From Acaryochloridaceae cyanobacterium VAR_48_metabat_390 (GTDB lineage Bacteria; Cyanobacteriota; Cyanobacteriia; Thermosynechococcales; Thermosynechococcaceae), in contig JANPLU010000091.1 in assembly GCA_031422435.1 (NCBI GenBank), forward strand, positions 1 through 24,931: 24,931 nt of DNA, written 5' to 3'. A program made the translations under genes and the position numbers. The first letter of the stretch is position 1. Each line of letters starts with the position of its first letter. This document shows, piece by piece, positions 3,306 through 24,722 of this stretch. The notes beneath the pieces were generated by a model. The model searched no databases and had not been told where the DNA came from. It was given only the letters and a program-made list of their open reading frames with translations.

Positions 3306-3962
3306 TTAAATGATGTCTGTGCGGTTTTGCTGCCAGAGCTTCGCTAAAGTTTCCTGGACATCGTAAAAATCATTCCAGGTATGGTGATAGACGTTGCGAT
3401 CACCCAAATACTGAGCCAGGCGATCGCGCGCAAACACCACATCACCCGCTAAGGCCATCTTGAGGTCCGTCACCGAATCCCCGATGACAATGGTTTGCTG
3501 AGCAGGGTAGCGCTGCATAATCTTGACTTTAGAAACCAGCTCAGAGTCTCCCAGAGCAGGAGAATGCACCTTAAAATAAGCGCCTTGAGTGTCAATTTCT
3601 GCCCCGTGCACCGCCTGTATTTTAGGAAGCAAAGTGGGAATCGCAGCCTCCACCATTGCCTTAAGCCCCCCTGTAATCACCACAAACGGAACGGCTTGAG
3701 CCTGTAAAAAATCCAGAAACTCCGACAACCCAGAACGCAGCGGCTGAGATGCGGCAAAGTCTAAAATCTCGCCATAAACCGAGGATGGCATCGATTCCAG
3801 CAGTTGCAGTACCCCTTCCCGAAGCGTTAGTTCAAGGGCGTACATTTTAGGGATAAGCTCCGCCGCTAAGTCTGGGGTAAATCGCTTCAGCACAGCCACA
3901 AAAGTTTCTTGTGCCGTAATAGTACCGTCAAAGTCACAGAACACAATGCGCTCTAAGGTCAC
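3306..3962 (-). CDS. mtnX: HAD-IB phosphatase, MtnX-like (HK-MTPenyl-1-P phosphatase)
   Basis: FCDFDGTIT motif I, IGDSVTD motif, VFARDRL. Directly follows mtnW. GTG at 3962 gives a GTGA start/stop overlap (the ORF track starts at 3974). Confidence 0.85.
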   Translation of the reverse strand: MTLERIVFCDFDGTITAQETFVAVLKRFTPDLAAELIPKMYALELTLREGVLQLLESMPSSVYGEILDFAASQPLRSGLSEFLDFLQAQAVPFVVITGGLKAMVEAAIPTLLPKIQAVHGAEIDTQGAYFKVHSPALGDSELVSKVKIMQRYPAQQTIVIGDSVTDLKMALAGDVVFARDRLAQYLGDRNVYHHTWNDFYDVQETLAKLWQQNRTDII

Positions 3963-5128
3963 GGTGTCCCCCACTTTTCAAGGGCGCGGCGGAGGGCACC
4001 TTCTGGGATTTTGGCAAGCTCAAAGGATTGTCCTGGCTGGGCGTGTTTTAAGGCTTCAAAGAATGCCCTTACGCCCTCGGCTGGCCCGTCCGGGTGATCC
4101 ATAATGCCTGTTCCCGCGTTAAGAATAACGTCTTGACCGTAGTCGGCGATCGCTCTAGGCACCACCCCAGGATGAATCCCAGCGGACGGCACCGGAAAGA
4201 CATTGCGGCTTCTCAGCGCGTCTCTGATCTGAAATTCTTCGGTGGCTTCAAACGGTAAGCTGCCGTAATGGGCAGGATACAGTACCGCATCGGCTCCAGC
4301 ATGGGCAAACAAAGTACCCAGTAACGCAGAATAGCTAAACCCGTGATCAGGGGCACCGCACCAAGCCCCCGCCAAGGCAGGGTGGGCAAAAATCGGCACA
4401 GAAATCTCTGGATCTGCTGCCAGAGCCTCTAAAACAGAAAATCCGTAAGACAGGACGTTGAGGAGTAGCGCATTGGCTCCGGCTGCAACGAGCTGCTTGG
4501 CCTGGGCTAAAAGCTGATTTGCCTTCCCCGTAACATTGACGGCGTAAAGGAGCGATCGCCCATTTTTCTGCCGCATATCCTCAATCACAGGGCGACAGGC
4601 TTTCAGGCGCTCTAGGGTAGGTGCACTGTCTAGATTGACCATAATTTCGTCATCTTTAATGATGTCGAGGCCTGCTCCGGCAACCTGGCTCAAAATTTGG
4701 GCATGGTCAGCAGCCGATAGCCCCAAGGCGGGTTTATAGATTGCCATGATGAGGGGGCGACTGGGCGTATGGAGGAGCGATCGCACCCCAGTGATGCCAA
4801 ATTTAGGGCTTTGCCCATACCCTGAAGGCAGTCGAATTGCCGTCACTTTTGCTGATCCTGCCATCGAGTATTTGCCAAAAATCATCGTTAGCAGTGATGC
4901 AATATCGCCCTCCACATTGGCAACCGGAAAGCGCACAGTTGCCAATGCTGACCCGTCAACGTCGCTGGTCTGAACGTTGATGACCTCAGCCTTATGAGCC
5001 GAAAAAGAAAATTCACGATGGGCAAAAGATGCATCCCAGGTGCCGACAGTTTGGCCTAGGGCAATCACCTGGGCCTGTTTCTCGGCATCTACTCCTCCTG
5101 GAAAGCGATAGTCAACTTCAATTTGCAT
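3959..5128 (-). CDS. mtnW: RuBisCO-like protein (form IV), 2,3-diketo-5-methylthiopentyl-1-phosphate enolase
   Basis: KDDE motif (GLDIIKDDE), IFGKYS, AHPALAGA, VPSAGIHPG, NAGTGIMDHPDG. Flanked by mtnD and mtnX. ATG 5128 overlaps the mtnD stop. Confidence 0.92.
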   Translation of the reverse strand: MQIEVDYRFPGGVDAEKQAQVIALGQTVGTWDASFAHREFSFSAHKAEVINVQTSDVDGSALATVRFPVANVEGDIASLLTMIFGKYSMAGSAKVTAIRLPSGYGQSPKFGITGVRSLLHTPSRPLIMAIYKPALGLSAADHAQILSQVAGAGLDIIKDDEIMVNLDSAPTLERLKACRPVIEDMRQKNGRSLLYAVNVTGKANQLLAQAKQLVAAGANALLLNVLSYGFSVLEALAADPEISVPIFAHPALAGAWCGAPDHGFSYSALLGTLFAHAGADAVLYPAHYGSLPFEATEEFQIRDALRSRNVFPVPSAGIHPGVVPRAIADYGQDVILNAGTGIMDHPDGPAEGVRAFFEALKHAQPGQSFELAKIPEGALRRALEKWGTP

Positions 5129-5669
5129 GGGTCTGTACGGCAACGGCCTGCATCCGAATGGCTGTCTCTGTATAGTCCGGTGTCCAGCCTAAAGTATCGA
5201 CAAAGTAGCGGACTGCCTTAATGCGACGTAGAGAGGTCAGATAAAACCAGTGTTCTGTTCCGGCGGGGACGTTGATGTACTCTTCTGGCTCAATAGTCAG
5301 CTCCATTTGCGTACCGTCTGGGCACACAAACCCAAAGACTCCTTCACCATCCACGATGTAGCGCACTTCGTCGTCGGCATGAGTGTGGGGACGGCTAAAT
5401 TTTTCGAGCAGCCCGTCAAGGTTAGGGGTATCTGGGTTAAGCACAATCAAGTCTCTCGACTGATAGCCTTCTAGAGACTCGAAGTAGTGGTCAAGCGATC
5501 GCAGCACCTGCTCTTTTTCGTCATCCTGAAGACTTGGCTGAGCGAGTAGAGCTAAGGCATTGCCGCCGACAGGCCATCGTTTGAGCTGAATATTGAGGGC
5601 GGCAAGATGCCCACCGATATGTTCTAGATCGGTTAGCGTTTGCCCATGCTCTAAATGCAAAATTGCCAT
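5118..5669 (-). CDS. mtnD: Acireductone dioxygenase (cupin)
   Basis: HTHADDEVRY metal motif, VPAGTEHWF, IKAVRYF...GWTP. Confidence 0.92.
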   Translation of the reverse strand: MAILHLEHGQTLTDLEHIGGHLAALNIQLKRWPVGGNALALLAQPSLQDDEKEQVLRSLDHYFESLEGYQSRDLIVLNPDTPNLDGLLEKFSRPHTHADDEVRYIVDGEGVFGFVCPDGTQMELTIEPEEYINVPAGTEHWFYLTSLRRIKAVRYFVDTLGWTPDYTETAIRMQAVAVQTHAN

Positions 5670-10994: not shown

Positions 10995-11819
10995 CTAAAG
11001 GGACGGATCGCTGACGTGACTCAGTCGATACCCCATTTTCCGATCTGCTTCAAAGGTTGGCGCAGCAGCCTGAAGCGTTCGCTCCAGGAGCCAAGGCATC
11101 AGACGGTTACACCACACCGCCATCTGTCCCTGCCAACCCACAATAATTTCATTCGCGTCTCGGTTTAAGCCCGTGATTAGCGCCTGAGCCACCTGCTCTG
11201 AAGTCATGGGCACCGCCCATCTAAACCACTTCAAGTCTTTCACCATGTCTGTATCTGTCAGGGACGGCAGAAGGCTAATGACCCGAATATTGTGCGCTGC
11301 AAGCTCGCCTCGGATGGCTTGGGTAAAGCCCAAAATGGCAAACTTAGTGGCAGAATAGGTCGCCATCGTGGGCGCAGCAACCTTACCCATCAGGCTGGCT
11401 ACATTCACAATGGTGCCGCTTTGCTGAGAGGCCATGCGACGACCTATGAGTCTGGTAACGCTATACATCCCCATCAGGTTAATGGCAATTTCTTCCTGCA
11501 CTTGCGGCAGTTTAGACTGCAAAAATGGCGCTTGATGGGCAACCCCAGCACAGTTGATCAAAATATGGACAGGGCCATGATCTCGCCATGCTTGCGAAAG
11601 CACCACATTTGTCTGGATGCGATCGCCCAAATCAACCGTCAGCGGAACCGCTTCTACACCAAGTTCCTCAACTTCAGCCGCCACTTGTGCCAGCCGTTGC
11701 GGGTTTCGAGCCACCAGCAGCAGCCGATAGATGCCCTGTTGAGCAAGTTCGAGGGCGATCGCCCGACCAATGCCACGGGACGCACCCGTTACAAGCGCTG
11801 TTTTTCCTTTAATATTCAT
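10995..11819 (-). CDS. Short-chain dehydrogenase/reductase (classical SDR)
   Basis: TGASRGIG, NCAG, catalytic YSATK. GGAGG at 11835-11831 supports ATG 11819. Confidence 0.93.
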   Translation of the reverse strand: MNIKGKTALVTGASRGIGRAIALELAQQGIYRLLLVARNPQRLAQVAAEVEELGVEAVPLTVDLGDRIQTNVVLSQAWRDHGPVHILINCAGVAHQAPFLQSKLPQVQEEIAINLMGMYSVTRLIGRRMASQQSGTIVNVASLMGKVAAPTMATYSATKFAILGFTQAIRGELAAHNIRVISLLPSLTDTDMVKDLKWFRWAVPMTSEQVAQALITGLNRDANEIIVGWQGQMAVWCNRLMPWLLERTLQAAAPTFEADRKMGYRLSHVSDPSL

Positions 11820-12095
11820 CGTGATTAAAACCTCCAAATCTGAAGTCTCACCGCGTCATCAGCTTAAGTAGAAAGCTGATAGAGACCACTGAGTCTCGCC
11901 GCCACGCCGTGAGAGGTCGTTAGTATTGACTAAAACTGATATCAAGCCAAGATTTTGAATGCCTAGACCCAGAAGTGTCGCGAACCGTTCTGTCTAGGAA
12001 CTCAATGGATTAGCAGCAAAATACCGAATTGTAGACGTGGTATTGCATGATGCATATCTCCTGAATGCAGCGATAAACCTGAAGGTGATTGGTAC
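11820..12095 (-). promoter_or_regulatory. Long structured 5' leader of the SDR gene (candidate attenuator)
   Basis: Paired segments 11998-11992/11968-11962, 11914-11904/11856-11846, 11897-11893/11886-11882 and 11880-11873/11865-11858. Contains a uORF. Confidence 0.6.
12010..12048 (-). CDS. Putative leader peptide MQYHVYNSVFCC*
   Basis: AGGAG (12062-12058) sits 9 nt before the ATG. Ends TGC TGC TAA. Lies between a promoter-like element and the structured leader. Confidence 0.5.
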   Translation of the reverse strand: MQYHVYNSVFCC

Positions 12096-12101
12096 ATGCA
12101 T

Positions 12102-12130
12102 ACCTTAGCAACGGGATCAAGCACCTGCAA
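12102..12130 (-). promoter_or_regulatory. Sigma70-type promoter for the uORF/SDR transcript
   Basis: TTGCAG (12130-12125), 17-bp spacer, TAAGGT (12107-12102) with an extended TGn. Confidence 0.55.
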
Positions 12131-12327
12131 CATTTATTAGCAAAATTCTGCAATCTTGATATGTCTCTACATTTTTCTCAGAATTGCCTGCGTTCAAAAA
12201 CACTGCTTTATGCCAACACAGTAATGCGCTCACGATAAATCTCAGCGTTTGAGCTGAGCCTCTACGCTGGCGCTATTCTGAGAATTTACGGCTTAAATGA
12301 GAACTGGCTGCCCGTCAATCTGCGCTG

Positions 12328-13194
12328 TTAAAGCTGTGACTCAGAACCCAATGGGACTGAAGCTTTAGTCGGTGCAACGCTATTTTCTCGATTTGCCACA
12401 CTGCGCCGCATTGCTTCTACAAATCGGCTGACGCGAATAGGGTCTACCCGATTCTCCACTGCGCCCCCACGCTTAAGGGAACTCGCCACAATCACACCAT
12501 TGGCAGCCTGGATCAGATGGGGGATATTCTCCCAACTTGCGCCGCTGCCAATAAAGACAGGTACGCCCTTTGCGGCATTGATCGCCAGCTCTAAATCTTC
12601 AAAACTGGGTGGGCTTCCCGTTGCCCAGCCCGATAAAATAATGCCGTCGGCTAACCCACGCTCAATGGTTTCCTGCACTGCCGTAGTGAGGTTGGGTGAA
12701 CCCAAGGGACGGGCGTGCTTGACCAAAACATCCGCCAAAATCTTCACGTCGCTGCCCAGTTCGCGGCGGTAGCGCAAAAGCTGATGCGCCTGCCCTTCAA
12801 TGAACCCCTGATCGGTTGCCATCACGCCCGTCAGCACATTGACGCGGATAAACTGTGCGCCCACACAGGTGGCGATCGCCATTGCACTTCTCGCGTCATT
12901 TCGCAGCACGTTAATGCCCACGGGTAGCGGCACCAGCGTCATAATTCGCTGCACAATCAGGCTCATGGCGCTCACCACCACCGGATCAACCTGATCTTTA
13001 GCAAAGGGTGCGTCAAAGAAATTCTCAATAATTAGACCATCCACACCGCCTGCCGCCAAGGCCGCAGCCTCTTGCTCTGCGCGATCCATCACGGTCTTTA
13101 AGCTACCGCCCCATCGAGGAGAGGTGGGCAACGGCAAAAGATGGACGACCCCAATAATGGGATGAGCGGATTTGAAAATGTTCTGTAACGCCAC
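12328..13194 (-). CDS. btpA: Photosystem I biogenesis protein BtpA
   Basis: PIIGVVHLLPLPTSPRWGG, ENFFDAPF, GINVLRND, ADVLVKHA. Start uncertain (GTG 13194 or TTG 13209). Confidence 0.92.
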   Translation of the reverse strand: MALQNIFKSAHPIIGVVHLLPLPTSPRWGGSLKTVMDRAEQEAAALAAGGVDGLIIENFFDAPFAKDQVDPVVVSAMSLIVQRIMTLVPLPVGINVLRNDARSAMAIATCVGAQFIRVNVLTGVMATDQGFIEGQAHQLLRYRRELGSDVKILADVLVKHARPLGSPNLTTAVQETIERGLADGIILSGWATGSPPSFEDLELAINAAKGVPVFIGSGASWENIPHLIQAANGVIVASSLKRGGAVENRVDPIRVSRFVEAMRRSVANRENSVAPTKASVPLGSESQL

Positions 13195-14427: not shown

Positions 14428-15135
14428 CTAGCGATCGCCGCATAGTTGGGCGATCGCCCCTTCAAGCTGCTTCAGCCCTGTCAAAGAACCCTGAATCAGG
14501 CGCACTGCCCTACGAGGCTGACGAATCATGCTGCTGGCGAGTGCGAGGGGCTTCAGTTCTCCCGTTTCGGTCATGGCAGCGGCTAAATCTGGTACATCAT
14601 GCTGGGCATCGTCGCTGACTACGCGCAGCATCCCCACGGCAATATCTGTGTCTTGCAGCGCCGCTAAGAACGCATAGCCTTCCATGTCTACCACCTCGGC
14701 ATTAAAGCGTTGGGCGAGAATAGCCTTTTCTGTAGCTAAATGCACGAGGTGATCGCACATTAACCCTGTGACCTCCATCACCGATGGGTTAAGGCGCTCC
14801 TGTAAAGTCTTTAGGAGAGATACATCACAGATGAGAGGTGGAACGGATTGCGACACTCTCCCGTCAATACAGCTTTGGTACAGGATGCGATCGCCTACGC
14901 AAAGCCGATTCGTCAAACTGCCACAAAGCCCGACTAATAAAACAGAGGGAGAACTATTCAGGCGTTTACGGTCTGTTTGGAGCCACTGTTTTAGAAATTG
15001 TTGCATTGGCTGAGGCCCCATGGGCGTGGCACAAAGCAAAACGGTCTCTAACAAACCGCTGCGCCTTAACCCCCGCTCAACCGCCTTAAACTCCGCACCT
15101 TGAGGGACAAAAATTGCGCTAACGGGACAGGACAT
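14428..15135 (-). CDS. Nucleoside phosphorylase-fold protein (PNP/UDP family; HpnG- or MtnN-like)
   Basis: GLCGSL, VVDMEG and LRVVSD motifs. Confidence 0.8.
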   Translation of the reverse strand: MSCPVSAIFVPQGAEFKAVERGLRRSGLLETVLLCATPMGPQPMQQFLKQWLQTDRKRLNSSPSVLLVGLCGSLTNRLCVGDRILYQSCIDGRVSQSVPPLICDVSLLKTLQERLNPSVMEVTGLMCDHLVHLATEKAILAQRFNAEVVDMEGYAFLAALQDTDIAVGMLRVVSDDAQHDVPDLAAAMTETGELKPLALASSMIRQPRRAVRLIQGSLTGLKQLEGAIAQLCGDR

Positions 15136-15434
15136 AACACTCCTTTAGCAAAAGCAATCATCCTAAACCAAAAACCCGCAGGCAAAATGTTTACCATAAA
15201 AAGCTAGACAGTTCCCATTGCTGTCACAAAAAATGAGCAAATTAGCATTCGCGTATGGTATCTTCCTCGGAGAGTCAGCATAAACCCTCTAAAGCCGATT
15301 TAACGGTTCTGAGCCAGTTATGGCAGAAGTCTAAAGTCTAGTTGTGAAGAACGTTGAAACCTTACTGGGTCTCAATGGGTTCAATGAGTGTGGTGGAACG
15401 CGTTGTGTTTGGTGTAGCGCAGGAGTGAGCGTGT

Positions 15435-16487
15435 ATGATTCAAATTGCCCTAGAATCTCCCCTTGATCAGCGGGAAGTCGATCAATTTTGTCAGGAAATT
15501 CTGCCGCAGGTTTCTCGCACCTTTGCGATCAGCATTCGGTTTTTGCCCGGTCAACTGGGTCGTTCTGTATTATGCGGCTACCTCCTGGCAAGAATTGCCG
15601 ACACCATCGAAGATGACCCCAAGGCATCGGTTGCAGCCAAATCAGCCTTACTCGACCAGCTCATCAACTGTTTTGAAGACTCCTCTTTAGCTGATCGCTA
15701 CGCTCAGCTTACCCAGTCTGTGAGCGGAGATCCGGCGCACTTAGAGCTGGTTCACCAAACCCATCAGGTCTTTACGCTCTATCGAAGTTTGCCGATTCAG
15801 TCTCAGCAAACGCTTCAGCACTGGCTTACCGAAATGATTGTGGGCATGAAGAAGTTTGTAAACCTCTACCCCAACGGCCTCCGGATTCAGACCCTAGAAG
15901 AGTACAAAGAATACTGTTACTACGTGGCAGGGACTGTAGGCTACCTGCTGACCGATCTTTGGTATGAGCATTCCCCGTTTGTGAGCCGCGAAAACTATCA
16001 GCTTTTACGCAAGACCTGCGCCGAGTTTGGTGAAGCGCTCCAAACGGTCAATATCCTCAAAGATATTGCTTGGGACGCAGAAGAGGAGAATGCCATTTAC
16101 ATTCCTCAAGATGCTCTAGTGGCGCACGGCAGCAGCCATGAGACATTGCTCGACCCCAACTATCTTGAGCAAAATCATGCTGCAATCAAGTCTCTGGTCG
16201 CGCTAGCCTGGACAGACCTCGATAAGTCTGCGGACTATCTCACCAGCCTGCCCCGTGCGTCTCTTGCCATTCGCCTGTTCTGCATTTTGCCGCTGATGTT
16301 TGCCTACGCAACGCTGCGAGACATTACTCAGTCCACAGCCATGCTGAAAAAGGGCGGCAATGTCAAAATTACGCGCGCTGAAGTGAAGGCGCTTATTATG
16401 GCGAGTCCGTTAACTGTGATTAGCAATGGTTTGGTGCGAGGGTTAATTGAACGGGTGCGGCAGAGTGCCTTTCGGCTTTGGTTTTAG
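15435..16487 (+). CDS. Squalene/phytoene synthase family protein (squalene synthase-like)
   Basis: VSRTFA, RIADTIEDD, YCYYVAGTVG, LQTVNILKDIAWD. AGGAG RBS at 15421. Confidence 0.88.
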   Translation: MIQIALESPLDQREVDQFCQEILPQVSRTFAISIRFLPGQLGRSVLCGYLLARIADTIEDDPKASVAAKSALLDQLINCFEDSSLADRYAQLTQSVSGDPAHLELVHQTHQVFTLYRSLPIQSQQTLQHWLTEMIVGMKKFVNLYPNGLRIQTLEEYKEYCYYVAGTVGYLLTDLWYEHSPFVSRENYQLLRKTCAEFGEALQTVNILKDIAWDAEEENAIYIPQDALVAHGSSHETLLDPNYLEQNHAAIKSLVALAWTDLDKSADYLTSLPRASLAIRLFCILPLMFAYATLRDITQSTAMLKKGGNVKITRAEVKALIMASPLTVISNGLVRGLIERVRQSAFRLWF

Positions 16488-23591: not shown

Positions 23592-24722
23592 ATGACAAGA
23601 TCCGGAATCGGCATCAGAACGGCTCAAGATCGTTCTGAAAGAATTACAGGCCAAGTTCATGTATATGATGGCACAGGTAAAGGGAAGTCCCAGGCTGCCT
23701 TGGGGGTTGTACTGCGCTCCATTGGTCTAGGGATTGGCTCCACTTTTCAAACCAGAGTATTGTTATTGAGGTTTCTCAAAGGCCCAGGCCGCACCTACGA
23801 CGAAGATGCCGCCATCGAAGCCCTTCAACGCGCCTTCCCCCACCTCATCGATCAGGTTAGAACCGGACGAGCAGAATTTTTCAACGCCGATGAAGTCACC
23901 CGCTTTGATCGCCTAGAAGCTCAGCGCGGCTGGGATATTGCCAAAGGGGCGATCGCATCCGGTCTCTACTCCGTCATCGTCCTCGACGAACTCAACCCCG
24001 TCCTAGATCTGGGACTGTTGCCTGTCGATGAAGTGGTGAGATCGCTCAAGCAAAAGCCAGATCACCTCGAAATCATCACCACAGGGCGTGGCACCCCTCA
24101 AGCCCTTATGGATATCGCCGATCTGCATTCAGAAATGCGACCCCATAGTCCAGAAGGCAACCACCAAGGTATCGAAGGCATTGAAATCTACACAGGTGCA
24201 GGCAAAGGTAAATCCACTAGCGCCCTCGGTCGCGCCCTCCAAGCGATCGGTCGTGGCATCAGCCAAGATCAATCCCACCGCGTTCTCATCATGCAGTGGC
24301 TCAAAGGCGGTTCCGGCTACACCGAAGATGCCGCCGTCGCCGCCATGCAGCAAAGCTACCCTAGTCTCGTAGATCACCAGCGTTGCGGCAGAGATGCGAT
24401 CGTCTGGCGGGGGCAACAGCAAGAGCTAGATTACGTCGAAGCCGAACGGGGTTGGGAAATTGCGAGAGCTGCGATCGCCTCAGGACTTTACAAAACCATC
24501 ATCCTCGACGAACTCAACCCCACCGTAGACCTAGAACTCCTCCCTGAAGAACCGATTCTTCAAGCCTTTCTCCGAAAACCCCGCGATACCGAAATCATCA
24601 TCACAGGCCGCTGCAAAAACAATCCCTCTTATTTCGCCCTAGCCAGCACCCATTCCGAGATGATTTGCCACAAACACTACGCCGAAAAAGGCATAGAACT
24701 CAAAAGAGGCGTAGATTTTTAA
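23592..24722 (+). CDS. cobO: Cob(I)yrinic acid a,c-diamide adenosyltransferase, tandem two-domain form
   Basis: Two P-loops (YDGTGKGKS, YTGAGKGKS), two LDELNP and two IIxTGR motifs. Confidence 0.92.
   Translation: MTRSGIGIRTAQDRSERITGQVHVYDGTGKGKSQAALGVVLRSIGLGIGSTFQTRVLLLRFLKGPGRTYDEDAAIEALQRAFPHLIDQVRTGRAEFFNADEVTRFDRLEAQRGWDIAKGAIASGLYSVIVLDELNPVLDLGLLPVDEVVRSLKQKPDHLEIITTGRGTPQALMDIADLHSEMRPHSPEGNHQGIEGIEIYTGAGKGKSTSALGRALQAIGRGISQDQSHRVLIMQWLKGGSGYTEDAAVAAMQQSYPSLVDHQRCGRDAIVWRGQQQELDYVEAERGWEIARAAIASGLYKTIILDELNPTVDLELLPEEPILQAFLRKPRDTEIIITGRCKNNPSYFALASTHSEMICHKHYAEKGIELKRGVDF

Follow-up and report, generated by a model that had tools for sequence, protein, structure and literature searches.

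A conserved twelve-codon reading frame in the leader of a cyanobacterial SDR gene, with length and stop position retained and a nearly neutral peptide

Amino-acid attenuator leaders include trpL and hisL as well as the polycysteine sORFs of actinobacteria. TnaC, MgtL, and SpeFL are instead nascent-peptide sensors, ones which make use of Rho. Leader ORFs such as uof-fur and uof-pqsR abut or overlap the main start, and with these it is the act of translation which matters, the peptide being irrelevant. Non-overlapping uORFs also are found in bacterial leaders, e.g., the Sinorhizobium hfq leader uORF8, uORF3, and uORF13, and effects of leader uORFs on stability or translation are described for this class in the available portion of PMC13285730. 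Cyanobacteria, as described in the available portion of PMC10287535, lack Rho and possess long 5' UTRs.

The locus considered here is found within a window, i.e., the whole of the stretch of DNA that was analyzed, consisting of 24,931 nucleotides from Acaryochloridaceae cyanobacterium VAR_48_metabat_390 (assembly GCA_031422435.1, contig JANPLU010000091.1). A first-pass annotation of this DNA described, ahead of an SDR gene, a promoter-like TTGCAG-17-TAAGGT followed by AGGAG, 9 nt, and then a short frame which ends about 190 nt before the SDR start, and all of this is found exactly as had been claimed (Table 1). That is, on the minus strand, TTGCAG (12130-12125) is separated by a 17-nt spacer from TAAGGT (12107-12102), with a TG ahead of the latter giving rise to an extended -10 (TG-n-TAAGGT). 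AGGAG is then followed by 9 nt, an ATG at 12048, MQYHVYNSVFCC, and a TAA ending at 12010, and 190 nt separate the end of this uORF from the SDR ATG at 11819. The promoter block also holds an A-rich upstream tract, a conserved TTGAT within its spacer, and a conserved GTG/ATG discriminator. The predicted TSS of this SDR unit is at 12095 (minus strand), the annotation having expected one near that position, and the published TSS of the Nostoc orthologue, as considered below, has matching spacing.

Table 1. Features of the SDR unit, with positions as counted along the window
Feature	Position	Strand	Basis
Conserved promoter block	12096..12143	-	Conservation in orthologous loci; single match in the window's genome
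47-nt 5' UTR with uORF Shine-Dalgarno AGGAG (12062-12058)	12049..12095	-	Shine-Dalgarno and start kept in orthologues
12-codon uORF, MQYHVYNSVFCC then stop	12010..12048	-	Length and stop conserved, peptide not
Predicted hairpin H1, directly after the uORF stop	11955..12005	-	Folds; equivalent stem covaries in core clade
Predicted long stem H3, TCTCAC with GTGAGA	11846..11914	-	Folds; covariation in 29 chosen loci
SDR Shine-Dalgarno GGAGG (11835-11831); in the window's genome, part of it is predicted to pair within a small hairpin	11831..11845	-	Folds; Shine-Dalgarno kept in orthologues
Classical SDR gene, PF00106, 274 aa from ATG 11819	10995..11819	-	Orthologue of Nostoc all0968
Terminator-like hairpin between btpA and the promoter	12241..12258	-	Weak: chance level is 1.4 such sites per region

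Viewed in isolation this site is modest, since a generic promoter scan does not include it in its list and since the window's genome holds 196 arrangements of AGGAG plus short ORF, and the case for it therefore rests on a comparison of loci. Alternative, overlapping frames exist as well within the window's leader, e.g., one with an ATG 2 nt after the Shine-Dalgarno (SD). Because a terminator-like hairpin follows btpA and is upstream of the promoter, the sequence suggests that the SDR unit may be transcribed independently.

SDR loci were assembled as five sets, these being 80 from species genomes, 29 from the window's family, 80 from metagenomes, 30 from a sample of the phylum as found by leader alone, and 30 from Nostocales. 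The first two sets, with one locus that was too short and one duplicate left out, provide 107 loci, and pooled counts refer instead to the first four sets minus duplicates, i.e., 196 loci, with Nostocales counted apart. These are the best matches of each search and are related to one another, so the counts that follow are not independent. A metagenome search for closer relatives yielded none above 73% among the matches returned.

The promoter is present in 101 of the 107 loci (score cut-off of 9, versus a best score of -3.8 on 40 shuffled upstream regions) and, pooled, is found ahead of the SDR in 174 of 179 orthologous loci having at least 800 nt of flank. The conserved block spans about 46 nt, consisting of an A-rich tract, TTGC, TTGA, TTG(C/T)TA-nnn-T, and then GTG/ATG, with many columns 90-97% conserved. 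It has one match only in the window's genome, which led us to reject the idea of a genome-wide regulon there. Over the window's promoter (12096-12143, minus strand), TTGCA, TTGAT, TTGCT, and GTGC recur every ~10 bp and the spacer TTGA is 92-96% conserved, because of which the sequence suggests that a dedicated DNA-binding regulator may act at these repeats. Patterns for NtcA and DIF1 boxes were searched for as well and neither is conserved, a loose NtcA box being found near -41.5 in 5 of 145, a strict one anywhere in 10 of 145, and a DIF1 box (TCCGGA) in 0 of 145.

A sequence-only model consisting of promoter plus uORF was searched against 151 sampled genomes of the phylum and matches 46 of them, 5 at chance-like E-values, leaving 41 strong matches. 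The best 30 matches, which include the window and several loci already in the set, all are upstream of the SDR (30/30). Of 10 further matches, 6 again are ahead of the SDR and 2 are instead ahead of another small gene, while the remaining 2 are weak and lack an SDR. Four SDR loci from genomes which the model missed possess a degenerate promoter only.

As to the downstream gene, it is a generic PF00106 dehydrogenase, its nearest structures are generic and FabG-like, and no NCBIfam family is reached at its cut-off among the 25 matches listed. Neighboring genes vary between loci, and a conserved gene neighborhood was not found, the largest true neighbor cluster covering 6 of 96 loci. Because gene neighbors are not conserved, the promoter, leader, and SDR evidently travel as one unit, as judged by comparing these loci.

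Several other features were observed along the way. The same promoter block precedes an unannotated protein of 67-71 aa at three loci (L250:628-840, plus strand; L251:1813-2013, minus strand; and L264), these being from two genomes of one family. That protein has no Pfam match, 13 other homologues are without the promoter block, and the window's genome is without a homologue, with the combination possibly representing a small, lineage-specific regulon. Locus L258, which probably represents an orphaned copy, carries a degenerate promoter plus a 10-codon Nostoc-type uORF that are not followed by an SDR. Locus L054 is labelled Candidatus Gracilibacteria and yet possesses a typically cyanobacterial SDR and leader, probably reflecting a binning or labelling error. 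Elsewhere in the window, a RuBisCO-like protein, an ARD cupin, and an HAD phosphatase are adjacent at 3306-5669 (minus strand), with roles that we take to be in methionine salvage. That row is consistent with a methionine-salvage operon, which is sulfur-related, and there is no sign of its linkage to the SDR, whose neighbors within 1.5 kb vary. At 23592-24722 (plus strand) is a 376-aa protein having two CobA/CobO/BtuR stretches, i.e., a tandem-domain corrinoid adenosyltransferase, and at 14428-16487 are a phosphorylase-family gene and a divergent squalene/phytoene synthase, possibly hopanoid-related.

Turning to the uORF itself, an SD plus start is found 30-70 nt after the promoter in 89 of 101 loci, versus 16/99, 20/100, 14/96, and 12/94 (12-20%) for the same arrangement in four shifted control windows, and its start codons are ATG, TTG, and GTG in 82, 6, and 1 cases, respectively. 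Pooled, and across orders, 158 of 180 promoter-bearing loci possess the SD plus start while 22 do not. As promoter and SD plus start both are conserved across loci, the uORF as originally noticed is real. Its length also is conserved. That is, among 145 distinct uORFs, 77 consist of exactly 12 codons, with 68 having some other length (including 27 of 7-11 codons and 14 of 13-15), and in Nostocales 27 of 29 have 12 codons. No length peak or conservation was found in frames +1 and +2.

Among the 114 cases in which the frame stays open up to and including codon 12, codon 13 is a stop in 77 (59 TGA, 13 TAA, 5 TAG). On the tree there are 13 stop-to-stop switches among TGA, TAA, and TAG, and sense neighbors of TGA are rare at codon 13 (TGG 1, TCA 1, CGA 0). 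In a neutral simulation employing the SDR tree, a 12-codon root, and matched divergence (identity 0.37-0.43), exact 12-mers number 10-15 of 86 versus an observed 47 of 86, with 0 of 1000 runs reaching 47, though this contrast is weaker at slower assumed rates (P = 0.008 at identity 0.49 and P = 0.16 at 0.59) and weakens as well if indels inflate measured divergence. Because early stops (of which there are 15) show no significant depletion (P of 0.07-0.18), selection would be mainly against running past codon 12, and the pattern reads as selection for termination by codon 13 at the latest. As the position of the stop appears to be under selection, translation of the uORF is implied, i.e., it likely is translated.

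The uORF nonetheless has been lost in an Acaryochloris-side clade and in locus L237, and so it is dispensable in some lineages. Between uORF stop and SDR there usually are 165-420 nt (median of 304), with gap lengths evenly distributed as to multiples of three. This spacer is mostly deleted in L013, L016, L026, L163, L164, and L178, largely one clade, and in such spacer-deletion loci only 2-83 nt separate the end of the uORF from the SDR start and the 12-codon length has been lost. Five of these variants have longer frames, with stops 2-37 nt before the SDR start, and 1 of the 77 12-mers is less than 100 nt away.

What is retained does not extend to the encoded peptide, for which the family majority is about MLYINL(A/G)SSPIH and then stop. 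The uORF has a dN/dS of 0.78 versus 0.13-0.16 for the SDR (23 of 28 disjoint pairs, 5 having been dropped as less than 50% identical). The three codon positions are equally diverged, no residue is invariant past the start, and there are 12-36 changes per position on the tree. By these measures the uORF peptide is nearly neutral.

Beyond the uORF is a spacer that is predicted to be structured. In the window this spacer is more stably folded than its shuffled versions (z of -2.2 and -3.3 in two runs), and over 45 loci stability is moderate, i.e., a mean z of -1.5 versus -0.75 for upstream controls. It is the 80 nt after the uORF stop that fold best (66 loci, mean z of -1.15). Peaks of pairing are found 19-33 and 64-73 nt after the stop (76 loci), which, given the size of the ribosome footprint, is just past the front edge of a terminating ribosome. 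H1 in 26 core-clade loci is 91.8% paired with 10 double changes versus 2.1 in shuffles, and H3 in 29 loci, window included, is 78.5% paired with 24 double changes versus 10.9, but both sets were hand-picked and consist of related loci, with relatedness inflating such counts. The window's H1 is equivalent in position to the core-clade stem and is not sequence-alignable with it. RNAalifold alone finds H1 and, on the H3 alignment, returns no consensus pairs. H3 closes ~10 nt upstream of the SDR SD. Leaders of the core clade (L002, L004, L009, L010, L036, L039) display two successive long inverted repeats, with arms AGA(T/C)ATTTCT and AGAAAT(A/G)TCT, which are candidate RNase III or protein-binding stems.

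The first-pass annotation also had proposed attenuation, and this was not supported. No intrinsic terminator was found in the window's leader. Under equilibrium folding of 30 loci, blocking of the uORF hardly alters the predicted energy for opening the SDR RBS (medians of 8.7 and 8.4 kcal/mol), the RBS opening more in 8 loci and closing in 5, that is, without consistent change, and a structural switch at the SDR RBS was not found. A looping of the uORF stop to the SD was rejected, since 17 unpaired nt are not distinguishable from 14 in shuffles. Rfam yielded only 3 chance-level matches over window positions 11500-12600, none at gathering score, and 0 matches over 20 orthologous loci.

The Nostocales orthologue, P0274, is 293 aa in length and has the accession BAB72925.1, which from accession numbering we take to be locus tag all0968; locus L220 encodes P0274 exactly. 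In the available portion of PMC10287535, all0968 of Nostoc sp. PCC 7120 corresponds to TU00610, with a gene-associated TSS, a 248-nt 5' UTR, a 68-nt 3' UTR, and 1197 nt in total, and subtraction of the UTRs therefore leaves room for one 293-codon gene. In L220, position -248 follows the predicted -10 box by 7 nt and precedes the ATG of the uORF by 47 nt, this being the same TSS-to-ATG spacing as is predicted for the window. A single published transcription unit, that is, spans from a TSS upstream of the uORF through all0968, so that SD, start, and in-frame stop all are within the 5' leader and on the same transcript as the SDR, as in bacterial cis-acting uORFs. After nitrogen removal, the log2 fold change of all0968 is 3.4 after 9 h and 4.1 after 24 h (PMC10287535), with reads of 0, 2, 31, and 65 at 0, 6, 12, and 21 h (PMC3141674). 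The all0968 rows in the available portions of these sources give TSS, UTR lengths, and expression only, and do not mention a uORF or structure.

Overall, it is quite probable that this uORF is genuine and under selection, and that it does not represent a Cys sensor common to the family. What these data show are the leader's anatomy and its conservation, selection at the stop, a peptide that is near-neutral, covarying stems, and, for the orthologue, the TSS and induction. We further propose a positive effect of the uORF on output of the SDR, whether by protecting the 5' end or by supplying ribosomes, though the sign of that effect could be negative instead. The reading that we favor, if tentatively and with somewhat less than even confidence, is of a 12-codon leader uORF that likely is translated, whose peptide likely is irrelevant, and whose ribosome likely stabilizes or licenses the mRNA, stopping short of the predicted hairpins. 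The promoter, as in the Nostoc orthologue, would be silent in nitrogen-replete cells and come on late in nitrogen starvation. A ~47-nt UTR, the uORF, a structured spacer of 160-420 nt, and the SDR would then all be on a single transcript. Loading of ribosomes would occur ~35 nt in from the 5' end, and after translation of the 12 codons a terminating ribosome would have its front edge right before H1. So positioned near the start of this long and structured mRNA, the ribosome would either stabilize the transcript or supply ribosomes to the SDR. It is the act of translating the leader cistron that would matter, that is, and not its product.

The position of the stop, fixed just upstream of H1, could alternatively indicate a codon-independent gauge of translation, with the time that ribosomes spend on the uORF or its stop, or readthrough, under nitrogen or amino-acid starvation setting the folding of H1 and the later stems during transcription, and thereby gating elongation, processing, or SDR translation. 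Such a gauge, which we consider improbable if still a serious contender, would fit with the orthologue being starvation-induced, with the base before the uORF stop being a pyrimidine in 73 of 77 12-mers, and with retention of TGA in 59 of 77 12-mers and in 27 of 29 Nostocales loci while SDR genes prefer TAA (43/76). TGA retention, at 77%, is however no higher than that at some internal positions, and the window's uORF ends with TAA. In addition, no alternative structure linking uORF to SDR RBS was found, the window's leader lacks an intrinsic terminator, and cyanobacteria, per the available portion of PMC10287535, are without Rho. A more specific version, unlikely but deserving of consideration, is a length-gauged ribosome sensor, in which a sequence-free frame of 12 codons, terminating one footprint before covarying hairpins, would report translation state in nitrogen starvation and gate the SDR without Rho. 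If true, this would be cyanobacterial leader-peptide control without sensor codons or arrest motif.

The uORF could be instead a vestige, i.e., an inherited remnant of little present effect that is found alongside a still-functional promoter and hairpins. A near-neutral peptide along with repeated loss or change in length would be expected of a remnant, and site-to-site rate variation can mimic conservation. Exchange of stop for stop nevertheless greatly exceeds point change of stop to sense, and the SD plus start are kept across orders in the pooled loci, leaving this explanation distinctly unlikely.

With uof-fur as type system, the ribosome-binding region of the uORF might serve as a relay site, that is, as target for an sRNA or RNA-binding protein, with SDR expression then following from uORF translation. 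Partial conservation is seen for nucleotides near the SD and in the first codons even though the peptide is near-neutral, and in the five spacer-deleted loci only 2-37 nt are between the end of the uORF and the SDR start. Loci with such short gaps belong largely to one clade, however, and the usual gap of 165-420 nt is far over a coupling range of less than 50 nt (PMC13285730, available portion), and we therefore give such a relay only a small chance.

That the 12-residue peptide itself acts, whether as a nascent-chain arrest sensor or in trans, would draw upon the lower dN/dS of codons 2-6 (0.57) and a recurring M-L/S-Y-I start. Codons 7-12 display a dN/dS of 0.94, though, and the +2 frame 0.70, such that the signal is within noise, and this together with the lack of an invariant residue after the start, and the many changes at every position, makes an active peptide very unlikely.

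Lastly, the first-pass annotation had the Cys codons sensing Cys-tRNA and the SDR thereby tied to sulfur limitation or thiol response. The window and Altericista sp. CCNU0014 (L001) do both possess Cys-Cys, despite codons 4-10 being wholly different; 13 of the 77 12-mers end in Cys, for which the tree shows 9 changes; and the window's uORF has the only Cys-Cys ending among the 196 AGGAG-plus-short-ORF arrangements of its genome. Those two are, however, the only instances of Cys-Cys among 127 distinct short uORFs, 72 of which have no Cys at all. The window's sister locus L082, with an SDR 86% identical, reads MQYQTLNPLFRF, without Cys-Cys; L220, encoding the all0968 protein, reads MSHIHSAKYVRT, without Cys; and a further 0 of 29 Nostocales uORFs have Cys-Cys, on which basis Cys sensing as a property of the family was rejected. 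Overall Cys is 4.1% versus the 3.2% expected from base composition, no attenuator structure was found, gene neighborhood is not conserved, and the sole expression data found are for induction of the orthologue by nitrogen removal. Cys-tRNA sensing, even if restricted to the window's lineage, therefore is extremely improbable, and a reading in terms of cysteine and sulfur is best abandoned. What survives from that annotation is a uORF in the SDR leader with a real promoter, which likely is translated and likely regulatory, and its suggestion that orthologous leaders be compared turned up an SD and short ORF that are conserved but Cys codons that are not, an outcome which it had itself named as counting against Cys sensing.

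The first-pass annotation knew of no described cyanobacterial equivalent and, in agreement, the literature searched provided no leader-ORF control in cyanobacteria. A published description of the SDR-leader uORF was not found, though bioRxiv supplements, subscription papers, or Nostoc Ribo-seq tables may list it, and all0968 is absent from the main texts searched. The available portion of the review PMC11848123 contains no description of such a leader element, the uORF motifs are absent from the sRNA list of PMC4734099, which may exclude gene-associated starts, and supplements of PMC9239167, PMC11797042, PMC12756182, and PMC7797909 hold no match. This apparently is a conserved cyanobacterial leader cis-element which is both unannotated and undescribed. 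It is widespread, 41 of the 151 genomes sampled from the phylum having strong matches, and Nostoc all0968, with its mapped TSS and large induction after nitrogen removal, represents a ready test system. The puzzle is that 12 codons are kept though their sequence is free and though they are hundreds of bases from the gene, and its answer would bear on the workings, where there is no Rho, of the long 5' leaders of cyanobacteria.

Relative to trpL, hisL, and the polycysteine sORFs, then, this leader similarly has a leader ORF of comparable size, then RNA structure, upstream of a metabolic gene. It differs in that conserved sensor codons were not found, nor a terminator or SD switch overlapping the uORF, and in that the gene downstream is a generic SDR, apparently not one for amino-acid biosynthesis. 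As with TnaC, MgtL, and SpeFL, stop position is conserved, and there is a long spacer to the gene as in tnaC-tnaA, but there are no conserved arrest residues (dN/dS of 0.78, or 0.94 for codons 7-12) and, unlike those Rho-using systems, the host phylum is without Rho (PMC10287535, available portion). What is proposed here resembles uof-fur and uof-pqsR in that the peptide is irrelevant and translation itself is proposed to matter, but a stop near the SDR start, i.e., within ~50 nt, is found in the five deletion variants only. With all0968 and its TU00610 it shares an orthologous gene and promoter position, TU00610 having a 248-nt leader and being induced by nitrogen removal (PMC10287535 and PMC3141674, available portions). 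Similar also are uORFs of the Sinorhizobium type, as described in the available portion of PMC13285730, which possess an SD, start, and short frame within the 5' leader, with action in cis being for the present uORF our proposal. Here, unlike there, length and stop position are kept across many cyanobacterial families, and the frame is 165-420 nt upstream with covarying hairpins between. By analogy, the cyanobacterial uORF may work like these non-overlapping bacterial uORFs.
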